Source of the DNA: an uncultured Planctomycetales bacterium
GTDB taxonomy: Bacteria > Omnitrophota > Gorgyraeia > Gygaellales > Profunditerraquicolaceae
DNA length: 64,000 bases
NCBI GenBank assembly: GCA_964467905.1
Contig: CAYXSY010000001.1
Coordinates: 17,226-81,225, forward strand
Direction: 5' to 3'
The notes under the pieces are model-generated. The model made no database searches, had not been told where the DNA came from, and saw nothing but the letters and a program-made list of their open reading frames with translations. Below, one piece after another: positions 13,130-34,752 of this stretch. Position 1 is the first letter of the stretch; each line of letters opens with the position of its first letter. A program made the translations under genes and the position numbers.

Positions 13130-13148
13130 ACCCTCTCCTTATTTTTTT

Positions 13149-13308: not shown

Positions 13309-13318
13309 TCTTTTATTT

Positions 13319-20749: not shown

Positions 20750-21088
20750 CTACTCTATCTCTAAGGAATCAATAATAAATTCCTGGTTATTGATAAGCTC
20801 GAAATCTTCCGCGCCGCATAGTGGACATGCATTAACAGGGGCGTTGATATCGCTGGAAACTTTACATTTATTGCATCTTATCGCTGCTTTATTCTTGCGT
20901 ATATTTAATGATACGTTCTTAATGCCGCTCTCTTCATTAAGCAACGCAAACGCCGAACGCAAACTCTGCTCGGTAACATGGGTAAACGGACCCAAGATAA
21001 CATTAACAGTCACTCTCTGATAACTAAAATCCGCTACCCTATCCTTGAGCAACTCAATTATCTTTTTGGCGAACATTATATCATGCAC
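20750..21088 (-). CDS. hypA: Hydrogenase nickel-incorporation protein HypA
   Basis: 112-aa ORF with an N-terminal MHD (MHE-type Ni site) and two CxxC pairs (CNKC...CPLC). Its stop abuts the gcvT start with no gap. Confidence 0.8.
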   Translation of the reverse strand: MHDIMFAKKIIELLKDRVADFSYQRVTVNVILGPFTHVTEQSLRSAFALLNEESGIKNVSLNIRKNKAAIRCNKCKVSSDINAPVNACPLCGAEDFELINNQEFIIDSLEIE

Positions 21089-21109
21089 CTTATCACCTAC
21101 TTTTAAAAG

Positions 21110-21847: not shown

Positions 21848-22656
21848 TTCAAGTGCCCCGTGACTAAATAGCCGAGGTATAAAGGAAAATTAAAAAACCT
21901 GAAGAATAAAAATAATCCTGCCCAGCCGACAATATAGCGGATCTCCCTGTAGGTTATTCTACCCTGTTTATGCGCATGCATATGCCCGTCAAACATGCGA
22001 CATGACATAGCGCAATAAATACGCTCTGCGCGGTCTAGGGTACGCAACAATAGATTCCCCACCAAGGGCACGAAAACCTTAAAACCTAAGACCGCCCTAA
22101 AAGACCCTCTGAATGAACTGGCGCGTACCATGCGCTCAGCCTCATCCGCTAATACAAATATATAGCGGTAGAAAAAAAGAAGTTGAGATACAAACACACG
22201 AGGCACGCCTAGGCTTAATAATGATTCGCAAATAGTATTAAAACCGGTTAAAGCCACCAGGCACATGGCTGATGTCACCGTTAATACAAAGCGCAGCATA
22301 ATCGATGCAAAAGAAACCCATCCTCCCGAAACACCAAGCGTTCCGAAATAAAATAATATTTGTTTATCTATGAGCGGGTTGAAAATCCCCAGTAAGATAG
22401 CAAACGGAGAAACCAATAATACTTTTCTCAATAAATAGCCTGCAGGAAGTCCGGCAGAAGCAATTAAAACGGCAGGATAGATAAAAAATGGCAATAGCCC
22501 CAGAACTTCATATTTACCGAAAGAAACAACCGTGACGATAAAAAATAAAGTAGTAATTATCTTAGCTCTCGGGGACAAGCTGTGTAATGGGCTATTTCCC
22601 GAAGCCAAAACATCCATATAACCTATATCGAATGAATTCCTGCCGATATTATTCAT
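21844..22656 (-). CDS. cbiQ: ECF transporter transmembrane (T) component CbiQ/NikQ
   Basis: 270-aa polytopic membrane ORF placed between the CbiM-like and CbiO-like genes. It has an ARG-containing coupling helix region (..RAERIYCAM..). Confidence 0.75.
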   Translation of the reverse strand: MNNIGRNSFDIGYMDVLASGNSPLHSLSPRAKIITTLFFIVTVVSFGKYEVLGLLPFFIYPAVLIASAGLPAGYLLRKVLLVSPFAILLGIFNPLIDKQILFYFGTLGVSGGWVSFASIMLRFVLTVTSAMCLVALTGFNTICESLLSLGVPRVFVSQLLFFYRYIFVLADEAERMVRASSFRGSFRAVLGFKVFVPLVGNLLLRTLDRAERIYCAMSCRMFDGHMHAHKQGRITYREIRYIVGWAGLFLFFRFFNFPLYLGYLVTGHLK

Positions 22657-22718
22657 AAATGAAGGCGAAATTAAAATAGAAACTTAGGGTTCTATTATAA
22701 ACCCTCGGCAGGAACTGG

Positions 22719-23750
22719 TCAAGCTGTAACCTTACGCCGCCTTAATAGCAGGCCCACTAAAACAACTATCAAAATAGTCAGAAGGCCTCCTGTAAAACCC
22801 GAAACAGATGTGCCGGCGTCAACAGCAGGCCAGGAAGATTGGTCTAGGGTAGCTTCTGCCTCCGTAACAGATTTCTTAAAACCATAGTCCGGTAAAAAAG
22901 CGGCCTTCTCTTGGAAGCCAGACAAAGAATCATAAATTCCACCTTGCGCCTCTAATTCTTCCTTGCCCGAAGTCTTAAACATCGCCCATTCAAGCCCGTC
23001 CGGATGACTGGATGCAAACCAACTCAACGCCCCTGCGGTAATGGCAGTTACAACCAACAACCCCGCGATAACTTTTTTTATATTAAGGTTACCTATTGGC
23101 GAAGATTGCTGTGCTAAAGATAGAATCTCCGGGCGCGCCTTCCAGACAAAAGTTACCACGGCTGCCGTAACCAGGCCTTCTACAATGCCTATAGCTAAAT
23201 GTATCGGCTGCATTAAAAGCACGAACGTATTAAATGGCAGCTCTGTCCTCCCCGAAAGTAGAGTTTCAACAACCACACCAAAAGCCCCAAGCTGTAATCC
23301 TATAACCGCAGCAACAATAGAACCTAGCATAATCTTACCCTGTGTAAGACTGCTGCCGACAATTTTACGGTAAACCAATGGATAAGCTATAAAACACGTA
23401 AAAAAACCTAAATTAAAAATATTACAACCCAAAGCCAGAATCCCGCCATCAGCAAAAAAGAGGGCCTGAACAACCAAAACTGATGCCATAACTATAAATG
23501 CCGCGTAGGGGCCTAATAAAATTGACAAAATCATCCCGCCGCCTAAATGTCCGCTTGAGCCGGTAGCAGGAATGCTGAAATTAATCATCTGCGCGGCAAA
23601 TATAAAAGCACCTAACACCCCCATTAATGGAATTTTACGGTCGGAGATCTCCTTTTGTACCTTTTTGCAGCTATAACCAAGTAAGCCGGCAGAAGCAGCC
23701 CACATTACTCCCCCTACAGCAGGTGATATCAAAGCATCAGCCATGTGCAT
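22719..23750 (-). CDS. cbiM: CbiM/NikM substrate component fused to a C-terminal PDGLE (CbiN/NikN-like) segment
   Basis: 343-aa ORF with the N-terminal MHMADALISP (metal-binding MH N-terminus of CbiM/NikM) and multiple TM helices. The C-terminal part contains SSHPDGLEWA and a final TM. Confidence 0.8.
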   Translation of the reverse strand: MHMADALISPAVGGVMWAASAGLLGYSCKKVQKEISDRKIPLMGVLGAFIFAAQMINFSIPATGSSGHLGGGMILSILLGPYAAFIVMASVLVVQALFFADGGILALGCNIFNLGFFTCFIAYPLVYRKIVGSSLTQGKIMLGSIVAAVIGLQLGAFGVVVETLLSGRTELPFNTFVLLMQPIHLAIGIVEGLVTAAVVTFVWKARPEILSLAQQSSPIGNLNIKKVIAGLLVVTAITAGALSWFASSHPDGLEWAMFKTSGKEELEAQGGIYDSLSGFQEKAAFLPDYGFKKSVTEAEATLDQSSWPAVDAGTSVSGFTGGLLTILIVVLVGLLLRRRKVTA

Positions 23751-23845
23751 AGTTTCCCTCCTTCGCAGTTAGCGAACATCGGCCGATCAGATTAGGCCAG
23801 ATGTTATCATTATATAATAAAAGCTTGCAACCGCAGAGCCGTTTT

Positions 23846-25201
23846 CTAAAAATCAATCTGCGTCCTCATACCACCCACAAATACCCCTGCAGTATCCCCT
23901 GTCACATCCTTACCAAAAGGATTCCAGATATACTGGAAGTCAGGGCTTATAGCCAAATGTTTATTGACCTGTATTCTATAATAAGCCTCCAGGTGCCCTT
24001 CATTTTTGGCATGCAGTCCGGGAATACTTTTCTTATAATCGTCCGAAGGAACAGCCTGACCTATGGCGAAAGCCAAAACATCATCTTCCCTGCCCCACGG
24101 CTTTCCGGTAACCTGTAAACCTGCGCTCCAGGAATGCTCCAGCGAATACACGGAACCGTCGCTGGCGGTAATATCCGGGTTGTAAACTTCCGGGTTTTGC
24201 CATCCGTAGCGCGCAAAAACCGTAATAAAATCGTTGGCTTTCTGATCCCAGCTCAAAGCAAAACCGTATGAACTTTCCTTTTCTTGAGTAGGAGCCAGCC
24301 ATTTAGTATGATAAGCATTACTGCTCCAGCCTAAGAAACGGTAATTACCTTCAAGGCCGAAGAATTTAGTCTTAAAATTGACCTGGCCGATATTGAACAG
24401 GTTATCGGCAATTTTCTCCCAGTCATTGTTGGAATCAAAAGTTCCGAAATTAAATTCCAGCCATTCATAAGGCACAAATGCCGCCCTGATGCCCACGGTA
24501 TTATCCGGAAATTCAATTACCGGATTATTGCGGAATATCCGGCCCAAAAATTGTGTAGTTTCGTCATTAGCAACTTCGCTATTATCGAAATATGCTGTGG
24601 GATCAAGCTTACCGAAAGTCAAAGCAATCTTATCCTTAAACATAAGCTGCTCATACCATAACTCTGTAATATGCACGCGGTCCTCATTATCTATATCACG
24701 GTTGACATTGCTATAAAGTATGAGATTGTCCTCTAGGCCATCACCCTGTCCGCCCTCAAGATGTAAAAATGCTCTCCCCGCCACTTCCTTAAATTCTTTA
24801 CCTATAGTAATATCGGCCGAATACGATCCGTCAGTCCGCCCTTCTTTCAAAGTCGCCCCTGCGTTGGTGTTATTTGTTCCCTGGACTATTAACGTACCTC
24901 CTGCTCCGATTTCAAGTCCTTCAGCAATAACCTGTGGCATACCCACCTGTCGATGCAGCTCTTGGTTAAAATTAGAGAATCTATCTTCGTATTCAGCTAT
25001 TTTCTTGTCTTGCGTAATATTACACTGCTCTTGCCTGATTATTTGTTTATCCTGCTCGGATATCTTTTGCTCTAGAGCAGCGATACGCCTCTCAAGGGCG
25101 GCAATTTTATCCTGGAGCGCTTTTTCATCAGCAAAAGCTATACCTGTATGAAACGTAAGAAAAGTAAAAACTAAAATCATTACCGAAATCCTTTTTTTCA
25201 T
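23846..25201 (-). CDS. OprB-like outer-membrane porin with N-terminal coiled coil
   Basis: 451-aa ORF with a signal peptide (..TGIAFADE) and a coiled coil (KIAALERRIAALEQKISEQDKQI). The beta-barrel-like remainder ends GGMRTQIDF (terminal Phe). Confidence 0.55.
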   Translation of the reverse strand: MKKRISVMILVFTFLTFHTGIAFADEKALQDKIAALERRIAALEQKISEQDKQIIRQEQCNITQDKKIAEYEDRFSNFNQELHRQVGMPQVIAEGLEIGAGGTLIVQGTNNTNAGATLKEGRTDGSYSADITIGKEFKEVAGRAFLHLEGGQGDGLEDNLILYSNVNRDIDNEDRVHITELWYEQLMFKDKIALTFGKLDPTAYFDNSEVANDETTQFLGRIFRNNPVIEFPDNTVGIRAAFVPYEWLEFNFGTFDSNNDWEKIADNLFNIGQVNFKTKFFGLEGNYRFLGWSSNAYHTKWLAPTQEKESSYGFALSWDQKANDFITVFARYGWQNPEVYNPDITASDGSVYSLEHSWSAGLQVTGKPWGREDDVLAFAIGQAVPSDDYKKSIPGLHAKNEGHLEAYYRIQVNKHLAISPDFQYIWNPFGKDVTGDTAGVFVGGMRTQIDF

Positions 25202-25219
25202 CTCTCCCCCTTTTATCTC

Positions 25220-25249
25220 GGTGTTACTAAAATAATGTTCGTGTTACTA
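25220..25249. promoter_or_regulatory. Two copies of GTGTTACTAA spaced exactly 20 bp (candidate NikR operator) upstream of the porin gene
   Basis: gtgttactaa occurs at 25220..25229 and again at 25240..25249, 19-48 nt upstream of the porin start codon (25201). It shares the GT(G/A)TTAC half-site with the nikR upstream repeat. Confidence 0.35.
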
Positions 25250-25271
25250 ATGAATAAAAAAATAATACCGC

Positions 25272-25685
25272 TTAGATCTCTCTGCCTGTAGTTGACATGC
25301 TTAATGAGCCGTGTTTTACGCCTTTTACCGAGCGTAGGCTGTCGGATAATCTCTGCACCTCTTTAGGCGAACCCTTGACTGCAATAATTTCAAGACAATT
25401 GTTGTGATCCAGGTGTATATGCTGACAGGAAATGATGCTCTTTCCGAAATCATGCTGGATATCCATAAGTTTATTGGTAAGTTCTCTTTTATGATGGTCG
25501 TAGATAAGGGTGATTGCTCCGGTAACCTCTCGGCCTTCCTGCCACTCTCTCTCGACAAGGGTGCTGCGGATTAAATCGCGGATTGCTTCAGAACGGTTAG
25601 TATAGTTCTTCCCTGATATACTCCTGTCAAAATTCTCCAGAAGCCTCTTCTCCAAAGAAACCCCAAAACGCACTAATGAAGCCAT
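25272..25685 (-). CDS. nikR: Nickel-responsive regulator NikR
   Basis: 137-aa ORF with an N-terminal ribbon-helix-helix (RFGVSLEKRLLENFD..NRSEAIRDLIR). The C-terminal ACT-like domain has His/Cys ligand positions (YDHHKRE..., CQHIHLDH). Confidence 0.85.
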   Translation of the reverse strand: MASLVRFGVSLEKRLLENFDRSISGKNYTNRSEAIRDLIRSTLVEREWQEGREVTGAITLIYDHHKRELTNKLMDIQHDFGKSIISCQHIHLDHNNCLEIIAVKGSPKEVQRLSDSLRSVKGVKHGSLSMSTTGREI

Positions 25686-25699
25686 AAAACTCTCCTTAT

Positions 25700-25726
25700 G
25701 TATTACGAATGTAAGAATTGTAACAC
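25700..25726. promoter_or_regulatory. Inverted repeat GTATTAC-N13-GTAACAC (candidate NikR autoregulatory operator)
   Basis: Half-sites at 25700..25706 and 25720..25726 are reverse complements apart from one A/G difference. They lie 15-41 nt upstream of the nikR start. A TTGACA -35 sits on the minus strand at 25744..25739. Confidence 0.4.
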
Positions 25727-25766
25727 CAATAAGTTATTTGTCAAGGAATTTTAAGCACTGCTTGGC

Positions 25767-26165
25767 TTAAAAAGTAACGGCCTTATCGCTCTCCTTAATA
25801 ATATCATACATATCTTTCATAGTATTTATGGGGCACACTTCTGTGGCTGCCTGATTACGCAATCTAATGCATGAACCACAGGCGTAAATTTTGCCACCTG
25901 AACGAATAAAGTCTATTGCTTGCTCAATGGTATTGAATTTATCGGTGCTTATATTCTGGTACTCAACTCCTTTACCCATAAAGAATATTTTGACCTCATC
26001 CTTCTGCCCGAGAGCGAAGTTCGCATACCTAAGTGCGTTCCAACAAGTCTCTGCATCATTATTCGAAATCAGAACGGCTATCTTCAACCGACCTCCTTTG
26101 TAATTCAAATAATCTTCAAGGCTCCGACCGGACAAACTTTCTGACATCCACGCAACCGGTCGCAT
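25767..26165 (-). CDS. DsrE/DsrF-like family protein (start uncertain)
   Basis: 132-aa ORF. The core KIAVLISNND..WNALRYANFAL....VKIFFMGKGV.......GGKIYACGSC resembles DsrE-like sulfur-relay fold proteins. The track start overlaps the ferredoxin gene by 61 nt, so the true start is probably further downstream. Confidence 0.45.
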   Translation of the reverse strand: MRPVAWMSESLSGRSLEDYLNYKGGRLKIAVLISNNDAETCWNALRYANFALGQKDEVKIFFMGKGVEYQNISTDKFNTIEQAIDFIRSGGKIYACGSCIRLRNQAATEVCPINTMKDMYDIIKESDKAVTF

Positions 26166-26293
26166 CTTGATTCATCGGTTACCCTGCACTTCCCGCTTTT
26201 TTCATCAATATATAGTATTTTATTAGGACACAGCGAAACGCATGCTCCGCAACCGATACATAAACCTTCGTCAATAATAACTATCTTATTCAT
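26105..26293 (-). CDS. Small 2x[4Fe-4S] ferredoxin
   Basis: 62-aa ORF with CIGCGACVSLCP and C..L..CQKVCP motifs. Confidence 0.85.
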   Translation of the reverse strand: MNKIVIIDEGLCIGCGACVSLCPNKILYIDEKSGKCRVTDESRCDRLRGCQKVCPVGALKII

Positions 26294-27000
26294 AACTCTA
26301 TTATATCTCCCTCCCTTGCTTCAATAAAACCATCTTTGAATACTGAACGTATAATTCCTGTAGCGCTTTTGCCCGTACAATGCAAAGGCATAATCTTCTT
26401 TACGCCAAGCTGCCGCAATTTCTCTATTATGTTCTGATTTACTTTATCCGTATTATCTTTTAAATGCATGCCGCCTAACAGTAAATATAAGCCTGTATGT
26501 AAATTTTCTTTGGCATATTGGACAATATTAACTATTCCTGGATGCGCGCAACCACAAACTAACGCCAGGCCATTATTTGTTCTAATGATAATGGATTGTT
26601 CGTATATTATGCGGCTACCGGATTTCCCATAAAGCTCTCCTGTAGTATAAACATTATCTTTAATCCGTAATGCATGATTAGATTCAACTAATTTAACTCC
26701 AAATGAAGCAATTCTAGACTTTATCTCTTGTTTAAATCGTGGACAGATATAAACGGTTATATCTTTACTCCCTCTTATTAAATACCACAACCCCGAGATA
26801 TGATCCCAGTCGTCGTGTGATAAAATTATATGTTTAATCTTCGATAAATCTACGCCAAACCTACGCATATTATTTAAAAAAACTTCCGGATCGCCAAATG
26901 TATCAAACAGTATATCCTCACCTATCAAAAATGAAACTCCCCATCTGCGGATAAAACGCTGCCATTTGGTTGATCCTACGGCTATAATCTTAATTTGCAT
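26290..27000 (-). CDS. MBL-fold metallo-hydrolase
   Basis: 236-aa ORF with ILSHDDWDHISG (HxHxDH-type motif variant) and a later CGCAHPG. Confidence 0.7.
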   Translation of the reverse strand: MQIKIIAVGSTKWQRFIRRWGVSFLIGEDILFDTFGDPEVFLNNMRRFGVDLSKIKHIILSHDDWDHISGLWYLIRGSKDITVYICPRFKQEIKSRIASFGVKLVESNHALRIKDNVYTTGELYGKSGSRIIYEQSIIIRTNNGLALVCGCAHPGIVNIVQYAKENLHTGLYLLLGGMHLKDNTDKVNQNIIEKLRQLGVKKIMPLHCTGKSATGIIRSVFKDGFIEAREGDIIEL

Positions 27001-27004
27001 AATC

Positions 27005-27379
27005 TTAATTTTTCAACAAATAGTCGGCTATCGCCCGATAAAGAGCGCTTACAGCCAATATTGAACAATGCAGATACCTTTTTGGCAGCCCTTTTAATTC
27101 CTGGATAATATCGCCTGCCGAAATTTCCAGCGCTTTATCAATGGTCTTGCCATATGCCAAATATGCTGCGGTTGCTGCTGCTGCCTTCGTGGATTCGCAC
27201 CCATCGCTATAATACCTGATATCCGTGATTTTATTATTCTCTATCACCAAGTAAAACTCCATGGCATCTCCGCACGGACCCCTTAAATATGAAGAGCTTG
27301 TAGGATCATTCATCCTGCCGAAAAACCTTTGCCCATCTAAAAAATCTGCAATTTTCTCAGGATATTTAGCGGGCTTCAT
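27005..27379 (-). CDS. IscU/NifU N-terminal-like Fe-S scaffold protein
   Basis: 124-aa ORF with the three scaffold Cys contexts GPCGDAMEFY, SDGCESTKAAA and LHCSILAV. Confidence 0.75.
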   Translation of the reverse strand: MKPAKYPEKIADFLDGQRFFGRMNDPTSSSYLRGPCGDAMEFYLVIENNKITDIRYYSDGCESTKAAAATAAYLAYGKTIDKALEISAGDIIQELKGLPKRYLHCSILAVSALYRAIADYLLKN

Positions 27380-27382
27380 AAT

Positions 27383-28234
27383 TTAATCCTCTAGTCGTTC
27401 CCATATCTCATAAATTTCATCTTGAACCGGGGTGCATTTATATTCCATAATAGTTTTGCCTTCTATCACTGCTTCGACAACTGCCTTATCGAAACTAATT
27501 TTCCCAATTAAATAAATGTTGTTTTCTCTACAATATTTTGCAATTTTTTCTGACATCACAGTATTTAAATCGTACTTGTTTATTATGAGCCTTACAGGAA
27601 TGCTGAAATGTTTAACTACATCTATAACCCTTATCGCATCATGCAACCCGGATAATGTCGGCTCAGTTACTACGACAGCAAAATCTATGCCGGAAAGCGA
27701 TGCTATCACCGGGCACCCTATCCCGGGAGCACCATCAATAATCACCCAATCGCAATTATGTTTCTCTGCCAGTTCTTTTGCCTGTTTACGCACCAAAGAA
27801 ACTAATTTCCCCGAATTCTCTTCGGCAATTCCAAGCTTAGCATGCACCATCGGCCCAAAACGAGTCTCCGAAATAAACCATTCTCCCGCAATGTTTTCTT
27901 TCATAGTAATGGCTCCGACAGGGCAAATATAGCTGCAAAAAGCGCACCCCTCGCAAGAAATATGGTCAACTACAAAACTATCGCTAATGGCGTTAAATCT
28001 ACAAGCTGATATACACTTACCACATTGCTGGCATATCTTTTTATCGATGACAGCACTTAAGCCGCTTCTAAAATCATGCCGTTCTTTTATTTCGGGCTGT
28101 AACAACAAATGCAAATCCGCCGCATCAACATCGCAATCGGCCATAACCTTATTCTTGGCTAATGCCGCAAACGAGCCGCTAATTATGGTTTTGCCCGTAC
28201 CACCTTTTCCACTAATAATTGCTATTTGTTTCAT
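27383..28234 (-). CDS. MinD/ParA-superfamily P-loop ATPase with inserted 2x[4Fe-4S] ferredoxin domain (COG1149 type)
   Basis: 283-aa ORF with the deviant Walker A GKGGTGKT and the ferredoxin motifs CQQCGKCISAC and CEGCAFCSYICP. Confidence 0.8.
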   Translation of the reverse strand: MKQIAIISGKGGTGKTIISGSFAALAKNKVMADCDVDAADLHLLLQPEIKERHDFRSGLSAVIDKKICQQCGKCISACRFNAISDSFVVDHISCEGCAFCSYICPVGAITMKENIAGEWFISETRFGPMVHAKLGIAEENSGKLVSLVRKQAKELAEKHNCDWVIIDGAPGIGCPVIASLSGIDFAVVVTEPTLSGLHDAIRVIDVVKHFSIPVRLIINKYDLNTVMSEKIAKYCRENNIYLIGKISFDKAVVEAVIEGKTIMEYKCTPVQDEIYEIWERLED

Positions 28235-29138
28235 TGCTAAGACCGCGAATGTTCAAATACAAATTAATAAATTTATCCCGGTAAGAATTATCTTTTTGCA
28301 CTATGGGCAGCCCCTCGGAATAGTTAACTGCTATCTCTCTATCAAAAGGAATCCGCATCAAAACCGGAATTTCTTCTTTGCTACAATAATCTTCTACTTT
28401 TTTATCTCCAACATCGCAACGGTTGATAACTACGCCGAAAGGGACCTTGAGCCTTCTTAACACCTCAACAGCCAGGATGAGATCATTAAGCCCAAAAGGA
28501 GTCGGCTCTGTTACCAGCACGCAGAAATCGCTTCCTTTAACCGCTGTAATCACCGGACAAGATGTCCCAGGCGGAGCATCAATAATCACCGTCCTTGTCG
28601 GATTAATATACTCTTTTACCTGACGAATTAGTGGCGGTGACATTGCCTCCCCTACATTAAGACACCCCTGGGCAAACTGTATGCCGCCCTTGATGCCAAT
28701 TGCTACAACACCGATATCTTTTTTTACTTCTTTAATCGCTTGCTGGGGGCAAAGCATACTACAAGCACCGCAACCATGACAAAGATGCGGGAAGACTAAG
28801 ACGCTTCCTTTTTTATCGTTATTAGCTGGCAATACGGCAATGGCATTATAAGCACAAACTCCGCGGCACCTACCACAATAGATGCATTTTTTCTCATCTA
28901 CTTCCGGAACTAAAATATAAGATTTAGTCTCTTCTTTTATATGGGGTTTAAGAAAAATATGGGCATTTGGCTCTTCCACATCACAATCAAGAAACTGTAC
29001 CCCATTAGAGATACCGTTCTCTTTACTCGGCAAACTATATTCTCTAACGGAGCTAATATTTTCTAGAGATAAAGCCAAATTAACTGCAACCGTAGTTTTG
29101 CCCGTGCCGCCCTTACCGCTTGCTATTGCAATTATCAT
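28212..29138 (-). CDS. MinD/ParA-superfamily P-loop ATPase with inserted 2x[4Fe-4S] ferredoxin domain (paralog)
   Basis: 308-aa ORF with GKGGTGKTT, CIYCGRCRGVC and CHGCGACSMLCP. It overlaps the downstream paralog by 23 nt. Confidence 0.8.
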   Translation of the reverse strand: MIIAIASGKGGTGKTTVAVNLALSLENISSVREYSLPSKENGISNGVQFLDCDVEEPNAHIFLKPHIKEETKSYILVPEVDEKKCIYCGRCRGVCAYNAIAVLPANNDKKGSVLVFPHLCHGCGACSMLCPQQAIKEVKKDIGVVAIGIKGGIQFAQGCLNVGEAMSPPLIRQVKEYINPTRTVIIDAPPGTSCPVITAVKGSDFCVLVTEPTPFGLNDLILAVEVLRRLKVPFGVVINRCDVGDKKVEDYCSKEEIPVLMRIPFDREIAVNYSEGLPIVQKDNSYRDKFINLYLNIRGLSNETNSNY

Positions 29139-29767
29139 ATCGATTGATGAGAGGCTATTAAAACTTCCTGGAATTTGCTGGCTACTTTAATGGTTTTAAA
29201 TCCTTTATCTCTTAAATATTCCTCGGCGTCCGCTAGCGTCGTCTTGCCAACATCATGCTTACCGCCTTCGCTGGCATGGATCTTATCCATTAATACAAGC
29301 CCTTCGCGATTAAAATCGCTGAAAATAATTTTTCCTCCATAAGATAGCACACGGATAAGCTCATCGATTACTCTGTATGGACGAATTAAATGATGCAGCG
29401 TGTTAACAGAAAAAATAACATCAAAACTTTTATCTTTGAAGCTCAAAGACTCACCGTCCTCAATACAAAAATCAACCTGTTTGTCTAATCCAAAATAACG
29501 TAAATTAAGCTTTGCGAAATTTTGTTCGGTTTCAGAAATATCAAAAGTGGTAAATTTATATCCTGCCTTGGCCAACTCAAGAGCAAAATGCCCTTTGCCT
29601 GTACCAGCTTCGAGGATATTCCCGTAAAGGGGGAGCGATTTTTCTAAAATAAAAACCCGTTCCCTGTCTACATCATAACCAAGGCTGCTATATAAAGCTT
29701 TGCGCTCCAGATAACGCTTGTGGTTTTCTAATGCTTCTTTATCCTGTTTATTATCCATGGCTAGCAC
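29135..29767 (-). CDS. Class I SAM-dependent methyltransferase
   Basis: 210-aa ORF with the SAM motif I ILEAGTGKGHFALELA, and FDVIFSVNTLHH. Confidence 0.8.
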   Translation of the reverse strand: MLAMDNKQDKEALENHKRYLERKALYSSLGYDVDRERVFILEKSLPLYGNILEAGTGKGHFALELAKAGYKFTTFDISETEQNFAKLNLRYFGLDKQVDFCIEDGESLSFKDKSFDVIFSVNTLHHLIRPYRVIDELIRVLSYGGKIIFSDFNREGLVLMDKIHASEGGKHDVGKTTLADAEEYLRDKGFKTIKVASKFQEVLIASHQSI

Positions 29768-30025
29768 CTAATCATGTTCTTCAAACATCTTATTCTGCGT
29801 TGGATCATTTTTTCTAATCCACTCCATAAGCATCGCCGCATGCTCTTTCTCTTCATTCATGTTATGCGCAAGAAGCTTCTTCAATGACTCATCGCTAGTA
29901 GCGTCTATTCTCTCTTGATAGAAATCGATTGCCTCAAGTTCTTCACGCATAGATTTGCGCGCTCTTTCTAAATCAACGTGTTTAGGGTCCATCTTCTCTA
30001 AAGACTCAAAAAATGGCATAGACAT
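29768..30025 (-). CDS. EncFtn-like (encapsulated-ferritin family) minimal ferritin lacking a targeting peptide
   Basis: 85-aa ORF. REELEAIDFYQERIDATSDESLKKLLAHNMNEEKEHAAMLMEWIRKND aligns closely with my recollection of Rhodospirillum rubrum EncFtn (EELEAVDWYDQRVDASTD..LAHNRDEEKEHAAMTLEWLRRND), including the ExxH iron site. Confidence 0.7.
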   Translation of the reverse strand: MSMPFFESLEKMDPKHVDLERARKSMREELEAIDFYQERIDATSDESLKKLLAHNMNEEKEHAAMLMEWIRKNDPTQNKMFEEHD

Positions 30026-30033
30026 CTCCTCTC

Positions 30034-30411
30034 TTAGTTGTTTTTACCGGGCATGCCGAACTTAGAACCCACACTAGGGCTATCAGTCGTTTTATATTGG
30101 TTGTTTTTATAACCGTCTATTGCTTCCTTTATTGTTCCGGAGACGCCGGTAAATACCTCTATTCCAGCTAACGATAAAACCTGATGTGCATTTGGCCCGA
30201 CATTTCCGGTAAGAACTGCCCTGGCGCCCTTGGCAGCTACCAATTGTCCGGATTGGATACCTGCTCCTCCCTGAAACTGCGCATTTGGGTTATCTTCTGC
30301 TTCGAATACCCCTGTATCAGTATCAAAGAAAATGAAATTCCGAGCTCGGCCAAAACGCTGGTCCACTTTAGAGTCCAGAGTTTTGCCTTCGGATGTAATA
30401 CATATCTTCAT
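30034..30411 (-). CDS. NifB/NifX-family (dinitrogenase FeMo-cofactor binding domain-like) protein
   Basis: 125-aa ORF. MKICITSEG..LDSKVDQRFGRA..FIFFD and GAGIQSGQLVAAKGARAVLTGNVGPNA are typical of the stand-alone NifX/NifB-C family. Confidence 0.75.
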   Translation of the reverse strand: MKICITSEGKTLDSKVDQRFGRARNFIFFDTDTGVFEAEDNPNAQFQGGAGIQSGQLVAAKGARAVLTGNVGPNAHQVLSLAGIEVFTGVSGTIKEAIDGYKNNQYKTTDSPSVGSKFGMPGKNN

Positions 30412-30426
30412 TCCTACCCCTTCCTT

Positions 30427-30801
30427 TTAATGACAACCACCATAGCCGTGGTCTTTACAAGCATCGAGCCCGCCTAAGGTGTTATTCATAAAATCATCGA
30501 GCGCCTTTTGCACGTTGCCGGAATAACCAAACACCTGAACCCCTGCCTGTGCAAATTTCTGCTGTGCCCCCATACCCATACCACCGGCAATAACATGGGT
30601 TATGTTATATTTTAATATCTCATCAACCGCAACGCATCCCCCCATACCATGCACTGCCGTATTAGGTACGATTTTTATGCTCGTAATTTTATTTTTATCC
30701 TTATCGATGTCTGCCAATAGGAAGAACTTACATTGGCCAAAATGCGCACAGACATCACCGTTTAAACCGCTTTCGTTTTCTAAGACTACTCCTACTTTCA
30801 T
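30427..30801 (-). CDS. NifB/NifX-family protein (second paralog)
   Basis: 124-aa ORF with HFGQCKFFLLADID and ITHVIAGGMGMGAQQKFAQAGVQVF, showing the same fold signature. Confidence 0.7.
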   Translation of the reverse strand: MKVGVVLENESGLNGDVCAHFGQCKFFLLADIDKDKNKITSIKIVPNTAVHGMGGCVAVDEILKYNITHVIAGGMGMGAQQKFAQAGVQVFGYSGNVQKALDDFMNNTLGGLDACKDHGYGGCH

Positions 30802-30819
30802 ACGGAATACTCCCCTTTC

Positions 30820-31146
30820 TTATTTAGACTCTAACTCTTTAACCCTCGACCTTAGCGCATCAAGTTCATTATTAAGACACTCTTCCTGGACCTTGAGCGC
30901 AGACAATTCGTCCTCTTTAGATAAAGTACGGCTAAACGCTCCAAATGAACGTATGCTACTCTGGGATCTCATCCAACCAGGCAACCCAGTAGCGTAAAAA
31001 CAATTCCGCCTTACTCTACCTCTTCCTCGATAACCACCTCTCCCAAACTGCTCACCCACTGCTCCAACGGGCATAGCACAATAACCTCTCCCGCCACCCG
31101 TCATCGATCCTTGCCCTCTTGGACCTGTACCGTCAAAACCTGGCAT
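30820..31146 (-). CDS. DUF5320-family protein
   Basis: MPGFDGTGPRGQGSMTGGGRGYC... is Gly/Arg-rich with a C-terminal coiled coil (EDELSALKVQEECLNNELDALRSRVKELE). The track starts at GTG 31155. ATG 31146 is preferred because GGAGAG lies 8 nt upstream. Confidence 0.7.
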   Translation of the reverse strand: MPGFDGTGPRGQGSMTGGGRGYCAMPVGAVGEQFGRGGYRGRGRVRRNCFYATGLPGWMRSQSSIRSFGAFSRTLSKEDELSALKVQEECLNNELDALRSRVKELESK

Positions 31147-31169
31147 AGCTACCACTCTCCTTCCTTATT

Positions 31170-31188
31170 GAAAATCATTTTCATTATT
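31170..31188 (-). promoter_or_regulatory. Fur box upstream of the DUF5320 operon
   Basis: The minus strand reads AATAATGAAAATGATTTTC, 15 of 19 matches by hand to the consensus GATAATGATAATCATTATC. It lies 24 nt upstream of ATG 31146. Confidence 0.55.
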
Positions 31189-31207
31189 AAACAAAAAAAT
31201 ATAGCGC

Positions 31208-31681
31208 TTATTTATTGCTACTGCATTCTTGACATAAACCATAAAATTGCAAAAGATGGTTGGTAATCTTAAATTTATATTTCTGCTCCAACCCCTTTTC
31301 GGTCTGGTTAAGCAATTCAACCTCATCATCGATAAAGTCCGTATAATCAATTATTTTATTACATTGGGTACAGACTAAATGATGGTGATGATGTGCGCCC
31401 TTGGGTCCTTCAGCAAGCTCATAACGGGCTCTTCCATCTCCAAAATCAAGCTTATAGACCATACCTAAATCCGATAGGACATCAAGTGTTCTATAGACGG
31501 TAGTTAACCCTACGCTGGGATACTTTGAGTGAATTTTCATATATATATCTTCGGCGCTTAAATGGCCTTCTGATCTAGATAAAATATCTAGGATGGCCTC
31601 GCGTCCTAATGTAAGCCTATAGCCGCACCCCTGGAACTTGCCGTGCCACCACCTTTGTCCATGACAATTACCTCTCGGCAT
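31208..31681 (-). CDS. fur: Fur-family metalloregulator
   Basis: 157-aa ORF with a winged helix (HLSAEDIYMKI....VGLTTVYRTLDVLSDLGMV), a His cluster HHHHHLVC, and CxxC pairs (CTQC, CQEC). Confidence 0.85.
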   Translation of the reverse strand: MPRGNCHGQRWWHGKFQGCGYRLTLGREAILDILSRSEGHLSAEDIYMKIHSKYPSVGLTTVYRTLDVLSDLGMVYKLDFGDGRARYELAEGPKGAHHHHHLVCTQCNKIIDYTDFIDDEVELLNQTEKGLEQKYKFKITNHLLQFYGLCQECSSNK

Positions 31682-31709
31682 TGCTATCTCCTGGATTACA
31701 GATTAATAT

Positions 31710-31728
31710 CTTAATGATAATGGTTTCC
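31710..31728. promoter_or_regulatory. Fur-box-like site upstream of fur
   Basis: The plus strand reads cTTAATGATAATGGTTTCC, 12 of 19 matches to the Fur consensus with a perfect TAATGATAAT half. It overlaps the palindrome AATGG-TTT-CCATT and lies 29 nt upstream of the fur start. Confidence 0.4.
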
Positions 31729-31831
31729 ATTAACAATTATATACTACGTAGGTTGGCCTGTCAAGATTTTATTTTAGGTAGGATAAACTTTATCGAGAAA
31801 AGTGCGCGGGGAATCCCTCCATAAAGTTTTA

Positions 31832-31965: not shown

Positions 31966-32499
31966 TTACTTTATTTTATTACACCTCAAACCGTCTATTT
32001 TGCTCTGTACATACCAGGAAAAATATCCTTGATAGCGTCTTTGTAAACTTGGGATCTTCCAGTCATTGGTGGTTATTTTTCCTCTGCAGCCGCTGGAATT
32101 ACAAGCGCACCTAAAAGAATAATTGAAATCTGCGTCAGTCATCGCATAGTCATAGGTAATCTCTTCGCCTTTTTTAATGTCGCGCATAGCCACCATTAAA
32201 ATCTGCCCCTTTATGCCGGCGTTAGGATTACAGCTATGGTTAAAGAAATCATCGTCTTCTAAACCGCCTTTTTTACAGGAAACCATATAAAAACCCTCGG
32301 CGATTTTAGTTGCATAATCATCTATATTCTTAAAACCTCTCTTGGAAAGCTTATTAAACTCTTTATCCGTAATAATAAAGCCGCCCCAAACCGCGATAAT
32401 TTCATCTTTCTTTAACGCCGCGACAGCAAAGACTCCTCTTCTATTAATCCCCGAAGAGCGCACCTTAACTTTTTTAGTCAAATACGAATGCTTAATCAC
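31966..32499 (-). CDS. SET-domain protein (putative lysine/amine methyltransferase)
   Basis: 177-aa ORF with NHSCNPNA, EEITYDY and the post-SET Cys cluster CACNSSGCRG. Confidence 0.8.
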   Translation of the reverse strand: MIKHSYLTKKVKVRSSGINRRGVFAVAALKKDEIIAVWGGFIITDKEFNKLSKRGFKNIDDYATKIAEGFYMVSCKKGGLEDDDFFNHSCNPNAGIKGQILMVAMRDIKKGEEITYDYAMTDADFNYSFRCACNSSGCRGKITTNDWKIPSLQRRYQGYFSWYVQSKIDGLRCNKIK

Positions 32500-33502
32500 A
32501 GCTAATCTTTATCCCTTTCTTTCTAGTGTCTCTTAATAATCTATCAAATATAGCATCGTCTTTGGCTAATTCATCCAAGAATAAAAGCCCTTTTTGCCTT
32601 ATTGTTCCATCCATCACCAATCCGCCAACTGCCGCAGGGAAAGACGCGGTTATTTTCTGCATAGAATTTAATTCTTCGTCTTTCCTCGAATAACTTTTGA
32701 TTAACCAACGCTCTTTTTGGATTTTACCTATAATATCTACCCTGGCAAAAGTAATGTTAGTCTCTTTTCTTGATTCCAAAATAGTCTTTGTCATCATGAG
32801 ATTTTCTTTCTTCAAGAATCCCGCCTCTTGAATAAAGCCGAAGAAATCTCTAAAGCCCAACGGCCTAACGACGCGTACGATCAAATTATTCAGTTTCTTC
32901 TTATCCAATATGTTTTCAAAGCCGCTGGCGCAATAATAGCTTTCCGCATCTATGCCAAAATCTTTCTCTCTGCGATAACCGTCAAATACAGGGAATTTAT
33001 TTTTCTTGCCCGATACCACCTGCCATGAAGCTATCGTATGCTCAACGACAATATCCTCAAAACACCAAAGAAACGGATAAAAAAACTTCTTAGGAGATAA
33101 CGAACCTGCCTTAACTTCAATATCACAAATAGCTGAAAATTTATTAATCGCCCTGCCCAAAATAAAGTTCACCAGCCCCGGGCTAAAACCACACCCTGGG
33201 ATAACCAAGATTCCGCTTTTATTAATTTCTTTTTGTTTTTTTAAATATTCTGGGGGGTCAATATCGGAAATATCGATGAGGTTCTTTTTGTATTTTAATG
33301 CTAAGGCCAGACATTTTTTCCCGATTTCACCGGCAAGCGCACCTATAATAAGATCGCAATCGCGCGCCTGGCTGTCTTTTTGCAGGAAAGAAACCTCTTT
33401 TACAAAGCGATACTGTTTAAAATAATGCTTTACCGCGCGGGCTATGCGTCCGCAGCCGACAATCAGCACTTTATATTTTTTATTCATTTCTTCAGCTGCC
33501 AC
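32492..33502 (-). CDS. Saccharopine dehydrogenase-like NAD(P)-binding protein
   Basis: 336-aa ORF with the Rossmann motif VLIVGCGRIA and PGCGFSPGLVN, typical of the saccharopine/carboxynorspermidine dehydrogenase family. It overlaps speE by 19 nt. Confidence 0.6.
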   Translation of the reverse strand: MAAEEMNKKYKVLIVGCGRIARAVKHYFKQYRFVKEVSFLQKDSQARDCDLIIGALAGEIGKKCLALALKYKKNLIDISDIDPPEYLKKQKEINKSGILVIPGCGFSPGLVNFILGRAINKFSAICDIEVKAGSLSPKKFFYPFLWCFEDIVVEHTIASWQVVSGKKNKFPVFDGYRREKDFGIDAESYYCASGFENILDKKKLNNLIVRVVRPLGFRDFFGFIQEAGFLKKENLMMTKTILESRKETNITFARVDIIGKIQKERWLIKSYSRKDEELNSMQKITASFPAAVGGLVMDGTIRQKGLLFLDELAKDDAIFDRLLRDTRKKGIKISCD

Positions 33503-34374
33503 ATCTTGGGCATGACCATACTTGCCAGATGCATCTGGGGGGTATAATACTTAAGCATAGAGGCTTTATTCTTAAGCCGCGATTTTAATCTTTTGCTTAT
33601 CTGGCTTAATGCCACATTGGAAGGATCTGTTTTCTTAGAAGCGATTATAAAACAATACTCGCATCCGCAGCTATATGAAGGCATGGCAAGCCGCAGGGGC
33701 TTAACATGTTTGAATAGTTTGCCTAAGTTCGCGGCTATCCCCCTGATAATCAAATCAAAATCAAGAAACGGACCTATTTGGAAAACCGCTATCCCATCAT
33801 TTTTAAGGGCACGGTAGACAAGCCTATAGAAATCAAGCTTAAAAAGAACCTTCCCTGGCCCGACAGGATCGGTTGAATCAACGATAATCACATCATAATA
33901 GTTCTTCTTGGCCTGAATAAATTTCCTGCCGTCTTCAAAGAAAATTTTAACCCGCGGATTATCAAATGCGCCTTTAGATATAAAAGGAAGGTGTTTCTTG
34001 CTTAAGCGGACAACTTCTTTATCTATCTCGACAAAATGAATCTCTTCTAAAGGATATTTAAGTAACTCTCTTAAAACCCCGCCGTCACCTCCGCCTACAA
34101 CCAAAACCTTTTTAGGATTGCTATGTGAAATAAGCGCGGGATGCACAATCATCTCGTGATAAACAAATTCATCACTTTGGGAAAGCTGTATTATGCCGTC
34201 TAAGGCCAACATTTTTCCGAAGCCGGGGCTTTCAAAGACAAAAATATTCTGGAACTTACTTCTACCCTTAAATATCTCTTTATTTATTAAGAAACTGTCC
34301 CTTTTGCATCTTCTGACTCCGGGGAAAGATGTTTCTAAGAACCACTTTTTTCCTTTAATAAAATCGCTAGCCAC
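33484..34374 (-). CDS. speE: Spermidine synthase / polyamine aminopropyltransferase
   Basis: 296-aa ORF with QNIFVFES..GK.L.LDG, VLVVGGGDGGVLRE, VEID and IIVDSTDPVGP motifs. Confidence 0.88.
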   Translation of the reverse strand: MASDFIKGKKWFLETSFPGVRRCKRDSFLINKEIFKGRSKFQNIFVFESPGFGKMLALDGIIQLSQSDEFVYHEMIVHPALISHSNPKKVLVVGGGDGGVLRELLKYPLEEIHFVEIDKEVVRLSKKHLPFISKGAFDNPRVKIFFEDGRKFIQAKKNYYDVIIVDSTDPVGPGKVLFKLDFYRLVYRALKNDGIAVFQIGPFLDFDLIIRGIAANLGKLFKHVKPLRLAMPSYSCGCEYCFIIASKKTDPSNVALSQISKRLKSRLKNKASMLKYYTPQMHLASMVMPKMWQLKK

Positions 34375-34377
34375 TTT

Positions 34378-34752
34378 TTAACTGCCTCCTCTTTCAATAA
34401 ACTGCACTTTTACCTTTTTCGGGGAAAATGCTTTTTTAAGATATTTTAGTGCGTTATAAGGCTGGGTTTTTTTGCCGCAGGTAAAGATATCTACCGCGAT
34501 ATAATTATGTTCCGGCCAGGTATGTATAGCAATGTGGGATTCCGCTAATATAACCACTCCTGTAACACCCTGTACTGGGAATTTATAGACTGATGCCCTT
34601 AGCGGCGTATTATTAGCTGCCAAAGCAGCATCCCAGAGAATCCGTTTTATCCATTTCGGATCCTCAATAAACTTAGGCGCCCTAAAATCAGCTATTAGAT
34701 GTACAGACAAAGGATTTTGTTCCTTTTTCTTGTTCTTCTTCATATCTTTCAT
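34378..34752 (-). CDS. speH: S-adenosylmethionine decarboxylase proenzyme (small SpeH type)
   Basis: 124-aa ORF with the self-processing motif LAESHIAIHTWPE and DIFTCG. Confidence 0.85.
   Translation of the reverse strand: MKDMKKNKKKEQNPLSVHLIADFRAPKFIEDPKWIKRILWDAALAANNTPLRASVYKFPVQGVTGVVILAESHIAIHTWPEHNYIAVDIFTCGKKTQPYNALKYLKKAFSPKKVKVQFIERGGS

Follow-up and report, generated by a model that had tools for sequence, protein, structure and literature searches.

We analyzed a 64,000-nucleotide stretch of contig CAYXSY010000001.1 from an uncultured Planctomycetales bacterium (Omnitrophota according to GTDB), here called the window, whose positions serve as coordinates throughout. On the minus strand, a promoter followed by fur and 11 further co-directional genes occupies positions 31764 to 25767. 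The cluster appears to combine a core similar to the orange protein (ORP) complex of Desulfovibrio, which is known but functionally unsettled, with a dedicated repressor of a putative new Fur subfamily and a conserved layout of two operators. In our estimation, the chances are about even that the block is an autoregulated operon under a Fur-type repressor and that it provides, at low iron, a set of ORP-like metal cluster carriers together with an IscU-type scaffold of their own.

Gene content and boundaries of the block

All 12 minus-strand genes named in a sequence-only reading of the window are present, and a Pfam scan confirms the domain calls for all of their products. In order, they encode Fur, a DUF5320 protein, two NifX-like proteins (NifXa and NifXb), an EncFtn-like mini-ferritin, a methyltransferase, two MinD-type ATPases (MinD1 and MinD2), an IscU-like scaffold, a metallo-beta-lactamase (MBL)-fold protein, a small ferredoxin, and a DsrE-like protein. 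The same reading gave all intergenic gaps as 0 to 20 nt or overlaps. This holds from the DUF5320 gene onward, where the gaps are 18, 15, 8, 0 to 9, -4, -23, 3, 4, -4, and 17 nt (range, -23 to +18 nt) and translational overlaps occur, such as that of 23 nt between MinD1 and MinD2, but fur and the DUF5320 gene are 61 nt apart. Some gene starts were also corrected. As read from the DNA, the DUF5320 gene starts at ATG 31146, nine nucleotides after a GGAGA ribosome-binding site, and the methyltransferase gene probably starts at ATG 29758. The start of the DsrE gene was revised to TTG 26087, behind an AAGGAGG ribosome-binding site, giving a product of 106 amino acids, and the overlap with the small ferredoxin gene assumed earlier was not borne out.

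No convincing terminator or second promoter was predicted inside the 12-gene block, in agreement with the earlier view of one tightly packed, co-directional unit headed by fur. Downstream, nikR follows the DsrE gene after 81 nt and has a near-consensus promoter of its own (TTGACA-16-TACAAT; 25700..25744, minus strand) that overlaps a NikR box (GTGTTAC-N13-GTAATAC; 25700 to 25726) resembling the published consensus GTGTTAC-N13/14-GTAACAC (PMC545781), and the unit therefore ends at DsrE. Upstream, a tRNA-Leu gene lies directly before the fur promoter. A scan for RNA families between 22 and 36 kb of the window detected two tRNAs only and no riboswitch or other known RNA.

Promoter and Fur-type operators

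The predicted fur promoter P1 (31736..31764, minus strand) matches the sigma-70 consensus in 12 of 12 positions (TTGACA-17-TATAAT), and a TTGAC[AT]-N16-18-TAnnnT sequence is found at the same place in 52 of 59 nonredundant related loci. Two Fur-type operators were predicted: the palindromic O1 (TTAATGGAAACCATTATCATTAA; 31711..31733), 2 nt after the -10 hexamer, and O2 (ATAATGAAAATGATTTTCAATAA; 31165..31187), between fur and the DUF5320 gene. The sequence-only reading had reported a 15/19 match to the Escherichia coli Fur consensus 24 nt upstream of the DUF5320 gene and a second Fur-like site before fur. The first of these sites was confirmed (31170 to 31188, held by O2), with the distance to the ATG corrected to 23 nt, and the second is likewise a 15/19 match (31716 to 31734). 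With up to four mismatches to the E. coli 19-mer allowed, the window contains three sites against 0.52 expected, which alone is modest evidence. We also scored the window with a 23-bp weight matrix built from the relatives only, the window sites being left out, and used 200 Markov simulations as the control. O2 and O1 reached 31.3 and 29.7 bits, respectively, far above both the third-best site in the 64 kb (7.2 bits) and the simulation maximum (20.5 bits).

In the relatives, the 23-bp palindrome with the consensus TTAATGAAAATSATTTTCATTAA occurs at two fixed places per locus. Before fur, a TTGACA-N17-TATAAT promoter is followed by O1, which starts 1 to 4 nt past the -10 hexamer, and O2 is situated between the fur stop codon and the ribosome-binding site of the DUF5320 gene. 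O1 is kept at the same position in the genome loci and was found in 58 of the 70 metagenome loci with enough upstream sequence, or in ~67 of 70 after reassignment of sites filed as "other." O2 is present in every fur-bearing genome locus and in 56 of the 70 metagenome loci. The distance between the two is 509 to 555 bp in 59 nonredundant locus pairs, and hardly any further operator site was detected in ~640 kb of related sequence. This comparative evidence is strong and shows both Fur-type sites to be real. In two related loci (designated, like the others, by L numbers), L004 (~7800 to 7910) and L011 (~1140 to 1250), an inverted-repeat sequence of ~100 nt, similar to repetitive extragenic palindromic elements, follows O2 and lengthens the spacer between fur and the DUF5320 gene, so that O2 keeps its distance to fur and not to DUF5320. 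In three Thermodesulfovibrionales loci, a gene for a CGGC-domain protein lies between O1 and fur and is thus the first gene of the unit (L010, 74 to 499; L011, 124 to 492; L015, 12011 to 12385).

Just after the fur stop codon, the window has a T-run, TATATTTTTTT (31193..31203, minus strand), that is conserved in the relatives: in 54 of 59 loci, O2 comes after a run of at least six T residues, typically seven to nine and often TATATTTTTTT. The RNA before the T-run is not more structured than the controls (-5.5 versus -6.5 kcal/mol), and a hairpin precedes it in a few relatives only (L002, L013, and L026). A terminator after fur was consequently rejected as a general feature, as the T-run mostly has no stable RNA structure upstream. 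A second sigma-70 promoter before the DUF5320 gene was not identified in the window or the relatives, which have TATATT-like hexamers there and no -35 element. The conserved T-run therefore cannot be classed with confidence as a terminator or as a promoter element.

The 7-1-7 core of the operators, TGAAAATnATTTTCA, is identical to the delta-proteobacterial dFUR box WTGAAAATNATTTTCAW, which was derived from sequences preceding feoAB and fur in Desulfovibrio, Geobacter, and Desulfuromonas (five delta-proteobacterial genomes; Rodionov et al. 2004, PMC545781). The predicted sites show both the overlap of a palindromic 7-1-7 operator with a promoter and the operator layout of autoregulation. The dFUR regulons have in common with the window the palindrome core, the autoregulation of fur, and the overlap of operator and promoter. 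However, their targets are feoAB and genes for porins, flavodoxin, and similar proteins, and ORP-like genes are not listed among them (PMC545781), whereas the window Fur has a distinctive N-terminal extension, is tied to one operon, and has a second operator after its own gene.

Conservation of the cluster in uncultured anaerobes

When a genome collection was scanned with MinD1, matches came from Omnitrophota, Nitrospirota/Thermodesulfovibrionales, Planctomycetales-labelled, Dehalococcoidia, and other metagenome-assembled genomes (MAGs). fur was found in ten of these genome loci and in two long metagenome contigs, and all 12 keep the order fur, DUF5320, NifX-like, MinD1, and MinD2. The nearest genome locus is from an Omnitrophota MAG, and L002 contains all twelve genes in the same order as the window. 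In total, ~90 related loci keep fur, DUF5320, two NifX-like genes, and two genes for MinD with a ferredoxin domain, plus both operators. The methyltransferase, IscU-like, and MBL-fold genes are frequent across the loci, and those for the EncFtn-like protein (~4 of the 13 best-sampled loci), the small ferredoxin, and the DsrE-like protein (~3 of 13) are occasional. Insertions seen only in relatives include genes for TrmO-like, ARMT1/DUF89, radical S-adenosylmethionine (SAM), Arg/Gly-rich zinc-ribbon, and 1-Cys peroxiredoxin proteins, ZIP transporters, HypA, and DnaJ, as well as standalone Mrp/NUBPL genes (L003, L006, L009, L011, L013, and L026) and, in L027, feoAB at the end of the same gene string. 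In the Omnitrophota-type cluster of L006, a gene for a DUF2099 protein (12947 to 13885), a family described by Pfam as conserved in archaea, lies between MinD2 and the IscU-like gene.

The reverse scan, in which metagenome contigs were searched with the Fur subfamily alignment alone, returned 80 loci. A DUF5320-type gene directly follows fur in 59 of the 67 loci with at least 400 bp of downstream sequence, NifX-like genes follow in 37 of 43 (at least 1.5 kb), and genes for MinD with Fer4 domains follow in 21 of 23 (at least 4 kb). Since the search with Fur alone recovers the cluster, the Fur subfamily and the cluster belong together, and both synteny and operators are conserved across phyla (12 fur-bearing loci and 80 metagenome loci), so that the block withstands the refutation tests set by the sequence-only reading. 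One Dehalococcoidia locus, L014, has no fur and has a gene for a DUF134 protein upstream instead. As Desulfovibrio has OrpR, the core module is coupled to a different regulator depending on the lineage.

These data bear on whether the block is a functional unit at all. fur could be a stand-alone housekeeping regulator beside unrelated genes, and the 61-nt gap and conserved T-run after fur, the hairpins in L002, L013, and L026, and the variation of the EncFtn, ferredoxin, DsrE, and methyltransferase genes between lineages would be compatible with this. The synteny largely refutes such a separation, which we consider extremely unlikely: the Fur subfamily heads the same cluster in ~90% of the loci retrieved by Fur alone, the second operator lies directly before DUF5320 in nearly all loci, the T-run generally lacks stable upstream RNA structure, and the downstream gaps are -23 to +18 nt. 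A literature search retrieved no description of this arrangement; DUF5320 was found only in unrelated work, COG1149 nowhere, and nothing relevant was found for Fur combined with the NifX-like family.

Similarity to the ORP complex

The view that no assigned system has this combination of genes had to be abandoned, as the core of the cluster has the architecture of the Desulfovibrio ORP complex (PMC6345978). The paralogues Orp3 and Orp4 both have a pair of [4Fe-4S] ferredoxin motifs and, at the C terminus, a MinD-like amphipathic helix; they receive iron-sulfur (Fe-S) clusters and copurify with Orp8. The orange protein itself, Orp8, consists of a Nitro_FeMo-Co domain with a noncovalently bound Mo-Cu-S cluster. 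Orp9 (MrpORP), a fusion of Mrp and Nitro_FeMo-Co domains with CxHFGHC and CDH motifs, passes Fe-S clusters to Orp3-Orp4-Orp8 (PMC6345978). Judged by architecture only, MinD1 and MinD2 are the counterparts of Orp3 and Orp4, being a paralogous ATPase pair with two [4Fe-4S] ferredoxin motifs each. NifXb, whose best PDB match is 2WFB, is a single-domain Nitro_FeMo-Co protein of the orange protein type. NifXa, with its CAHFGQC and CKDH...CH motifs, in which only H20 and C24 are near-invariant, may be comparable to the Fe-S-binding, cysteine-bearing Nitro_FeMo-Co domains of Orp5 and the Di-Nase and might bind a cluster. Both systems occur in anaerobes, and Mrp-type carriers are encoded in several relatives of the window cluster. 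In the window itself, we identified no Mrp-DiNase fusion and no Mrp-like gene beyond weak matches to MinD1.

The two systems differ in regulation and organization. Desulfovibrio uses sigma-54, OrpR, and IHF and has two divergent operons, whereas the window has one co-directional operon with a Fur-family repressor and two operators, to which conserved genes for DUF5320, the methyltransferase, the IscU-like scaffold, and the MBL-fold protein are added. Control by sigma-54 and OrpR was rejected for the window, since neither a sigma-54 promoter nor the OrpR palindrome GGGCGYRTTTTGCGCCC was found upstream of the cluster, and the sigma-70 promoter and Fur-type operators are there instead.

As proposed for the Desulfovibrio ORP complex, the products might act in MinD-like positioning or cell division, or handle Mo/W-Cu-S heterometal clusters, with iron being the regulatory input only. 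The MinD-type ATPases, the MinD-like amphipathic C-terminal helix of Orp3 and Orp4, and the morphological defects of orpR mutants (PMC6345978, PMC8359166) could point to the former function and the similarity of NifXb to the Mo-Cu-cluster-binding orange protein, its closest relative (PMC6345978), to the latter. Still, both appear very improbable to us. Neither the window cluster nor the set of genes identified in relatives includes any for Mo/W or Cu transport or regulators, and the conserved partners are the IscU scaffold and the Mrp/NUBPL Fe-S carriers. In addition, Fur control is hard to square with a division role, which is itself only a hypothesis (PMC8359166).

ATPases and NifX-like proteins

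MinD1 (28212..29138; CbiA/ParA and Fer4) is an ATPase of the deviant-Walker-A type into which a 2x[4Fe-4S] ferredoxin domain is inserted, and MinD2 (27383..28234; CbiA/ParA and Fer4) is its paralogue (32% identity). Each has two CxxCxxCxxxC(P) motifs. In MinD1, the eight ferredoxin cysteines and C52, C194, and C252 are kept in at least 98% of 42 orthologues, and in MinD2, the eight ferredoxin cysteines and C34, C174, and C235 are conserved (34 orthologues). Of the three extra cysteines in each ATPase, one belongs to a DCDV motif that follows the Walker A loop, one to a GxxCPV motif behind Walker B, and one lies close to the C terminus. By analogy with NifH, CooC, and Mrp/Nbp35, these residues might bind a transferable cluster or metal at a dimer interface. 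No full-length solved relative of MinD1 was found in a PDB search. MinD2 is always paired with MinD1 in the relatives, and this constant pairing and the 23-nt overlap of the genes suggest that the two form a heterodimer.

NifXa (30427..30801; PF02579) is a Nitro_FeMo-Co domain protein that matches positions 273 to 365 of the MrpORP profile, i.e., the Di-Nase region (E value, 7.5e-13). Its H20 and C24 are kept in 97% to 100% of 34 orthologues and the other cysteines in 56% to 71%. The best solved relative of NifXb (30034..30411) is the Desulfovibrio gigas ORP 2WFB (E value, 1.8e-18; residues 2 to 109). Motifs RFGR, GGAGIQ, and TGNVGPNA are conserved in NifXb, which has no conserved cysteine ligands, as expected for noncovalent cluster binding of the orange protein type, and its tail beyond the Nitro_FeMo-Co domain is only ~20 residues long. 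The Thermodesulfovibrionales MAG locus L010 (1752 to 2516) encodes a single fusion protein of 254 amino acids with both a NifXa-like and a NifXb-like domain, suggesting that NifXa and NifXb act together. This fusion and the gene overlaps are consistent with the formation of a complex by the cluster proteins.

DUF5320 and the question of storage

The DUF5320 protein (30820..31146; PF17253) has a Gly/Arg-rich N-terminal part and a C-terminal helix. Three parts can be distinguished, namely, an invariant MPGFDGTGPxGQGxMTGGGRGYC module, an Arg/Gly-rich stretch ending in NCFYATGLPGWMR, and the helix, which is amphipathic. In the alignment, Cys23 is invariant and Cys49 is present in most sequences. 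The N-terminal part of the window protein has an isoelectric point (pI) of 11.4 and contains 26% Gly. AlphaFold2 gave a predicted local distance difference test (pLDDT) score of ~40 for residues 1 to 72, which predicts disorder, and a confident helix for residues 77 to 107. The start MP-x-x-D-G-T-G-P is shared by DUF5320, a small Arg/Gly-rich C4 zinc-ribbon protein without a Pfam family (L004, 9143 to 9379; L010, 2513 to 2806; L011, 2543 to 2830), and the N termini of some Fur orthologues (L004, L010, L011, and L015), and it is tandemly duplicated in DUF5320 proteins P0099, P0124, and P0212.

The composition of the N-terminal part resembles that of the tail of Pyrococcus furiosus IssA, a thioferrate storage protein with an IPR003731 (NifX-type) domain and a cationic, Gly/aromatic-rich tail with one Cys and a pI of 10.7 (PMC5524996). 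The likeness is closest in Thermodesulfovibrionales versions; for L011 and the IssA tail, respectively, the fractions are 0.27 and 0.21 for Gly, 0.11 and 0.10 for cationic residues, 0.24 and 0.20 for aromatic residues, and 0.14 and 0.16 for Pro, and each has one Cys and a pI of 10.7. DUF5320 and the NifX-like proteins could accordingly be a split IssA that stores Fe-S as an anionic thioferrate-like polymer, with the EncFtn-like protein supplying Fe3+ and the ATPases loading and unloading it. The composition (pI 10.7 in L011 and 11.4 in the window), the predicted disorder, and the constant position of DUF5320 beside NifX-like genes favor such a store, which we nevertheless consider unlikely. 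The likeness to IssA is compositional only and not homology, and whereas IssA is one polypeptide, the two parts are separate proteins in the window cluster. A DUF5320 profile search over 1.84 billion representatives gave 3,789 matches, and among the best 150 inspected for fusions there was no DUF5320-NifX fusion; the long ones just repeat the N-terminal module, and Pfam recognizes DUF5320 alone in them. DUF5320 also differs from IssA by the N-terminal MPxxDGTGPxGxGxxTGxGxGYC module and the C-terminal helix. Furthermore, P. furiosus makes IssA in the presence of ample iron and sulfide (PMC5524996), whereas repression by abundant metal is predicted for the window cluster, and the EncFtn-like protein is encoded in a minority of loci.

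Scaffold and accessory proteins

The IscU/NifU_N-type scaffold (27005..27379; PF01592, E value 2e-23) has C36, C61, H104, and C105 invariant in 18 orthologues and retains the CGD motif, with scores under the equivalog cutoffs (TIGR03419). The class I SAM-dependent methyltransferase (29135..29767; Methyltransf_11) gave only generic NCBIfam and PDB matches; it is present in the Omnitrophota-type loci and absent from several Nitrospirota loci. A gene with a TrmO_N domain is wedged between MinD1 and MinD2 in L005, L006, L007, L009, L011, L012, and L013, and another is found in L002 (9866 to 10402); the window has its class I methyltransferase upstream of the ATPases where these relatives have the TrmO-like gene between them. 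The recurrence of two unrelated SAM-dependent folds in the cluster may hint at methyl transfer in its chemistry.

The MBL-fold protein (26290..27000; Lactamase_B), a "metal-dependent hydrolase of beta-lactamase superfamily II," belongs to the uncharacterized TM1679/2P4Z group and has conserved SHDxWDH, GCAHPG, and HC motifs. The small ferredoxin (26105..26293; Fer4; 62 amino acids with eight cysteines) is an accessory component seen in the closest relatives only. The DsrE-like protein (25767..26087; PF02635), also accessory and encoded by the last gene of the unit, contains ACGSC and CP cysteines. Its C96, C99, and C111 are invariant in six orthologues, and no solved relative was identified by sequence.

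The EncFtn-like mini-ferritin (29768..30025; PF22277), a third accessory protein, ends at residue 85 and matches positions 1 to 80 of 114 only of TIGR04535. Its top PDB match is NE0167 (3K6C), followed by the Rhodospirillum rubrum EncFtn (5DA5). It shares with the R. rubrum protein and the free NE0167 the short two-helix family and keeps EELEA and EEKEH motifs where the ferroxidase ligands are expected. Unlike the R. rubrum EncFtn, it has no C-terminal targeting peptide, and no encapsulin was identified beside the gene, be it in the window cluster or in those related loci that were examined.

The Fur-family regulator

Fur (31208..31681; PF01475, E value 1e-33) carries an N-terminal extension, MPxxxxxGxxWWHGKFxGCGYR. 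This 23-residue extension is conserved in the orthologues, with W11, C19, G20, and Y21 invariant. Both CxxC pairs and the HHHH motif (HHHH-L-x-C-x2-C, C150/C153) are invariant as well, in keeping with the structural Zn and His-rich regulatory sites expected of a FUR domain. The top NCBIfam match is the Bacillus-type Fur (142.7 bits; model cutoff, 220), with PerR at 91 and Zur at 42 bits, and the top PDB match is Fur 9IRE (121 bits versus 86.7 for the Bacillus subtilis PerR). The AlphaFold2 model was poor (mean pLDDT, 62.6) and uninformative for the extension, where residues 1 to 23 scored below 50. The window Fur belongs to a 90%-identity cluster of 426 sequences whose named members are labelled Omnitrophota or "bacterium," and Fur-family matches at E values of 1e-20 or less fall into more than 2,500 such clusters; like the 3,789 representative clusters of DUF5320, this marks the system as abundant among uncultured anaerobes. 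Thermodesulfovibrionales orthologues open with MPWRDGTGPP, similar to the DUF5320 start MPGFDGTGP and the zinc-ribbon start MPRGDGTGP.

The extension raises the idea that the Fur paralogue senses the cargo of the operon and not free Fe2+, the extension binding an Fe-S species or docking onto the DUF5320/NifX carrier. The invariant Trp, Cys, and Tyr and the opening MPxxDGTGP module of some lineages led us to consider such a sensor, which seems to be a long shot. If true, it would be part of a feedback loop around a previously unrecognized, split-IssA-like machine for Fe-S buffering and delivery, widespread in uncultured anaerobes, and it would reveal the purpose of the orange protein complex.

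Proposed regulation and function

The gene content and order, their conservation, the anatomy of the promoter and operators, and the conserved ligand residues described above are observations; the effector metal, the cotranscription of fur with the remaining genes, complex formation, and all of the biochemistry outlined here are inferred. With plenty of the corepressor (most likely Fe2+), the Fur paralogue would bind O1, covering the transcription start of the sigma-70 promoter, and also O2 between fur and DUF5320, the two sites together silencing fur and the eleven other genes. When iron falls, O1 and O2 would be vacated. The derepressed cell would then produce the cationic DUF5320 protein, the IscU-type scaffold, and a pair of cluster-binding NifX-like proteins, of which NifXa has Cys/His ligands and NifXb is of the orange protein type. 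MinD1 and MinD2 would probably form a heterodimeric ATPase, with two [4Fe-4S] clusters in every subunit in addition to the three extra conserved cysteines. Lineage-variable helpers, i.e., the methyltransferase, MBL-fold protein, ferredoxin, DsrE-like protein, and EncFtn-like ferroxidase, would complement these, and the products together might assemble Fe-S or related clusters, keep them bound, and pass them on under iron scarcity.

Expression under metal scarcity is predicted because O1 lies on the transcription start and O2 lies in the path to the downstream genes. The sequence-only reading had envisaged an apparatus that stores iron, assembles clusters on a scaffold, and hands them off through ATP-driven carriers. 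Scaffold assembly and ATP-driven hand-off remain a reasonable proposal. Storage is doubtful, as the operator geometry predicts repression when the corepressor metal is plentiful, which fits a scarcity response better, and the EncFtn-like protein is only accessory. In Methanococcus voltae grown on FeS2, NifX-like proteins of the IssA clade rise together with FeoAB and DtxR, from which the authors infer that Fe(II) limitation is sensed (PMC9431491). This rise, like the attachment of feoAB in L027, fits the scarcity reading. A comparable regulatory logic is known elsewhere: the E. coli suf operon is a Fur-repressed, stress-type Fe-S assembly operon, with a scaffold and an ATPase derepressed at low iron. 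However, the window cluster lacks homologues of SufBCD, SufS, and SufE, and apart from the U-type scaffold fold the components are unrelated.

Several points weigh against the proposed iron-scarcity operon. No cysteine desulfurase (aminotransferase class V) was found in the operon or among the genes identified in relatives, and the operon itself encodes iron-rich proteins, which would be odd in a response to iron scarcity. The conserved T-run after fur and the lack of an evident promoter before DUF5320 would be compatible either with cotranscription of fur and the other genes or with a weak promoter covered by O2. The 64-kb window contains neither feoAB nor a further operator site, which bears on a local versus a global role of this Fur. 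The best 120 matches of the Fur subfamily are all from MAGs or metagenomes, with no cultured host. What the ORP complex itself does is described in the literature as unclear, cell division being one role that has been proposed (PMC8359166). A published Geobacter sulfurreducens Zur site resembles the O1-type sites. Finally, the Asp five residues after the first CxxC aligns with D104 of the B. subtilis PerR, whereas the aligned Fur proteins have Glu. The D104 residue of PerR is a determinant of peroxide sensitivity, and Glu at this position is a discriminator of Fur.

The last two points could mean that the regulator is a PerR-like (peroxide/redox) or other-metal (Zn or Mn) member of the family and that the operon is an Fe-S repair set for oxidative or metal stress. 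The PerR-type Asp is present in the window protein and most orthologues. In L006, L043, and L049, the NifX genes are separated by one for a 1-Cys peroxiredoxin, a thioredoxin gene is found in L026, and ZIP transporter genes are found in L002, L041, L045, L049, and L090. The EncFtn-like protein has a weak similarity to the rubrerythrin family in Pfam, and Desulfovibrio ORP expression is itself redox controlled (PMC8359166). Such a regulator nonetheless appears improbable, as the similarity scores are highest to Fur in both NCBIfam and the PDB, and the D104-equivalent residue is Glu in two orthologues (L004 and L006) and Asn in one (L013). In addition, the half-site TGAAAAT has the G/C of the Fur box and not the B. 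subtilis PerR sequence TTATAAT, it equals the box before feoAB, and feoAB is attached to the cluster in L027. Among these alternatives, iron (Fe2+) is the best-supported candidate effector, although the PerR-type Asp and the resemblance of a Zur site to the O1-type sites weigh against it.

Two further associations were rejected. Maturation of a nitrogenase cofactor is not indicated, as the window contains no nifHDK, nifEN, or NifB gene and the radical SAM genes of the relatives were not identified as NifB. Magnetosome and ferrosome genes, considered because of the phyla involved, had no Pfam match among the 12 cluster products or their nearest neighbors.

More than 10 years of work on the ORP complex have not settled its function. 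In hundreds of environmental genomes, its core is here tied to a Fur-type switch and an IscU scaffold, which offers a concrete hypothesis for the ORP-like core, namely, cluster assembly and trafficking under iron scarcity. DUF5320 gains a defined set of genomic partners, and the cluster extends the picture of metal homeostasis in Omnitrophota and Nitrospirota, two phyla with few cultured members or none.

Neighboring genes

All gene-like open reading frames of at least 130 amino acids in the window (1 to 64000) are on the minus strand, and the GC skew is negative throughout. Directly downstream of the block is a nickel unit (20753 to 25744, minus strand) with nikR and genes for an OprB-family porin, CbiM-PDGLE, CbiQ, an ABC ATPase, and HypA. 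In L026, too, nikR is followed by a gene for an OprB-type porin, which suggests that the porin is a candidate outer membrane nickel channel. Farther along, at 14.9 to 20.7 kb, are genes for the glycine cleavage system, a lipoate ligase, and a radical SAM protein. Upstream of the tRNA gene, a polyamine cluster (31966 to 34752, minus strand) encodes a SAM decarboxylase, a spermidine synthase, and a saccharopine-dehydrogenase-like protein and ends in an overlapping gene for a SET-domain protein of 177 amino acids, an unusual partner for bacterial polyamine genes.

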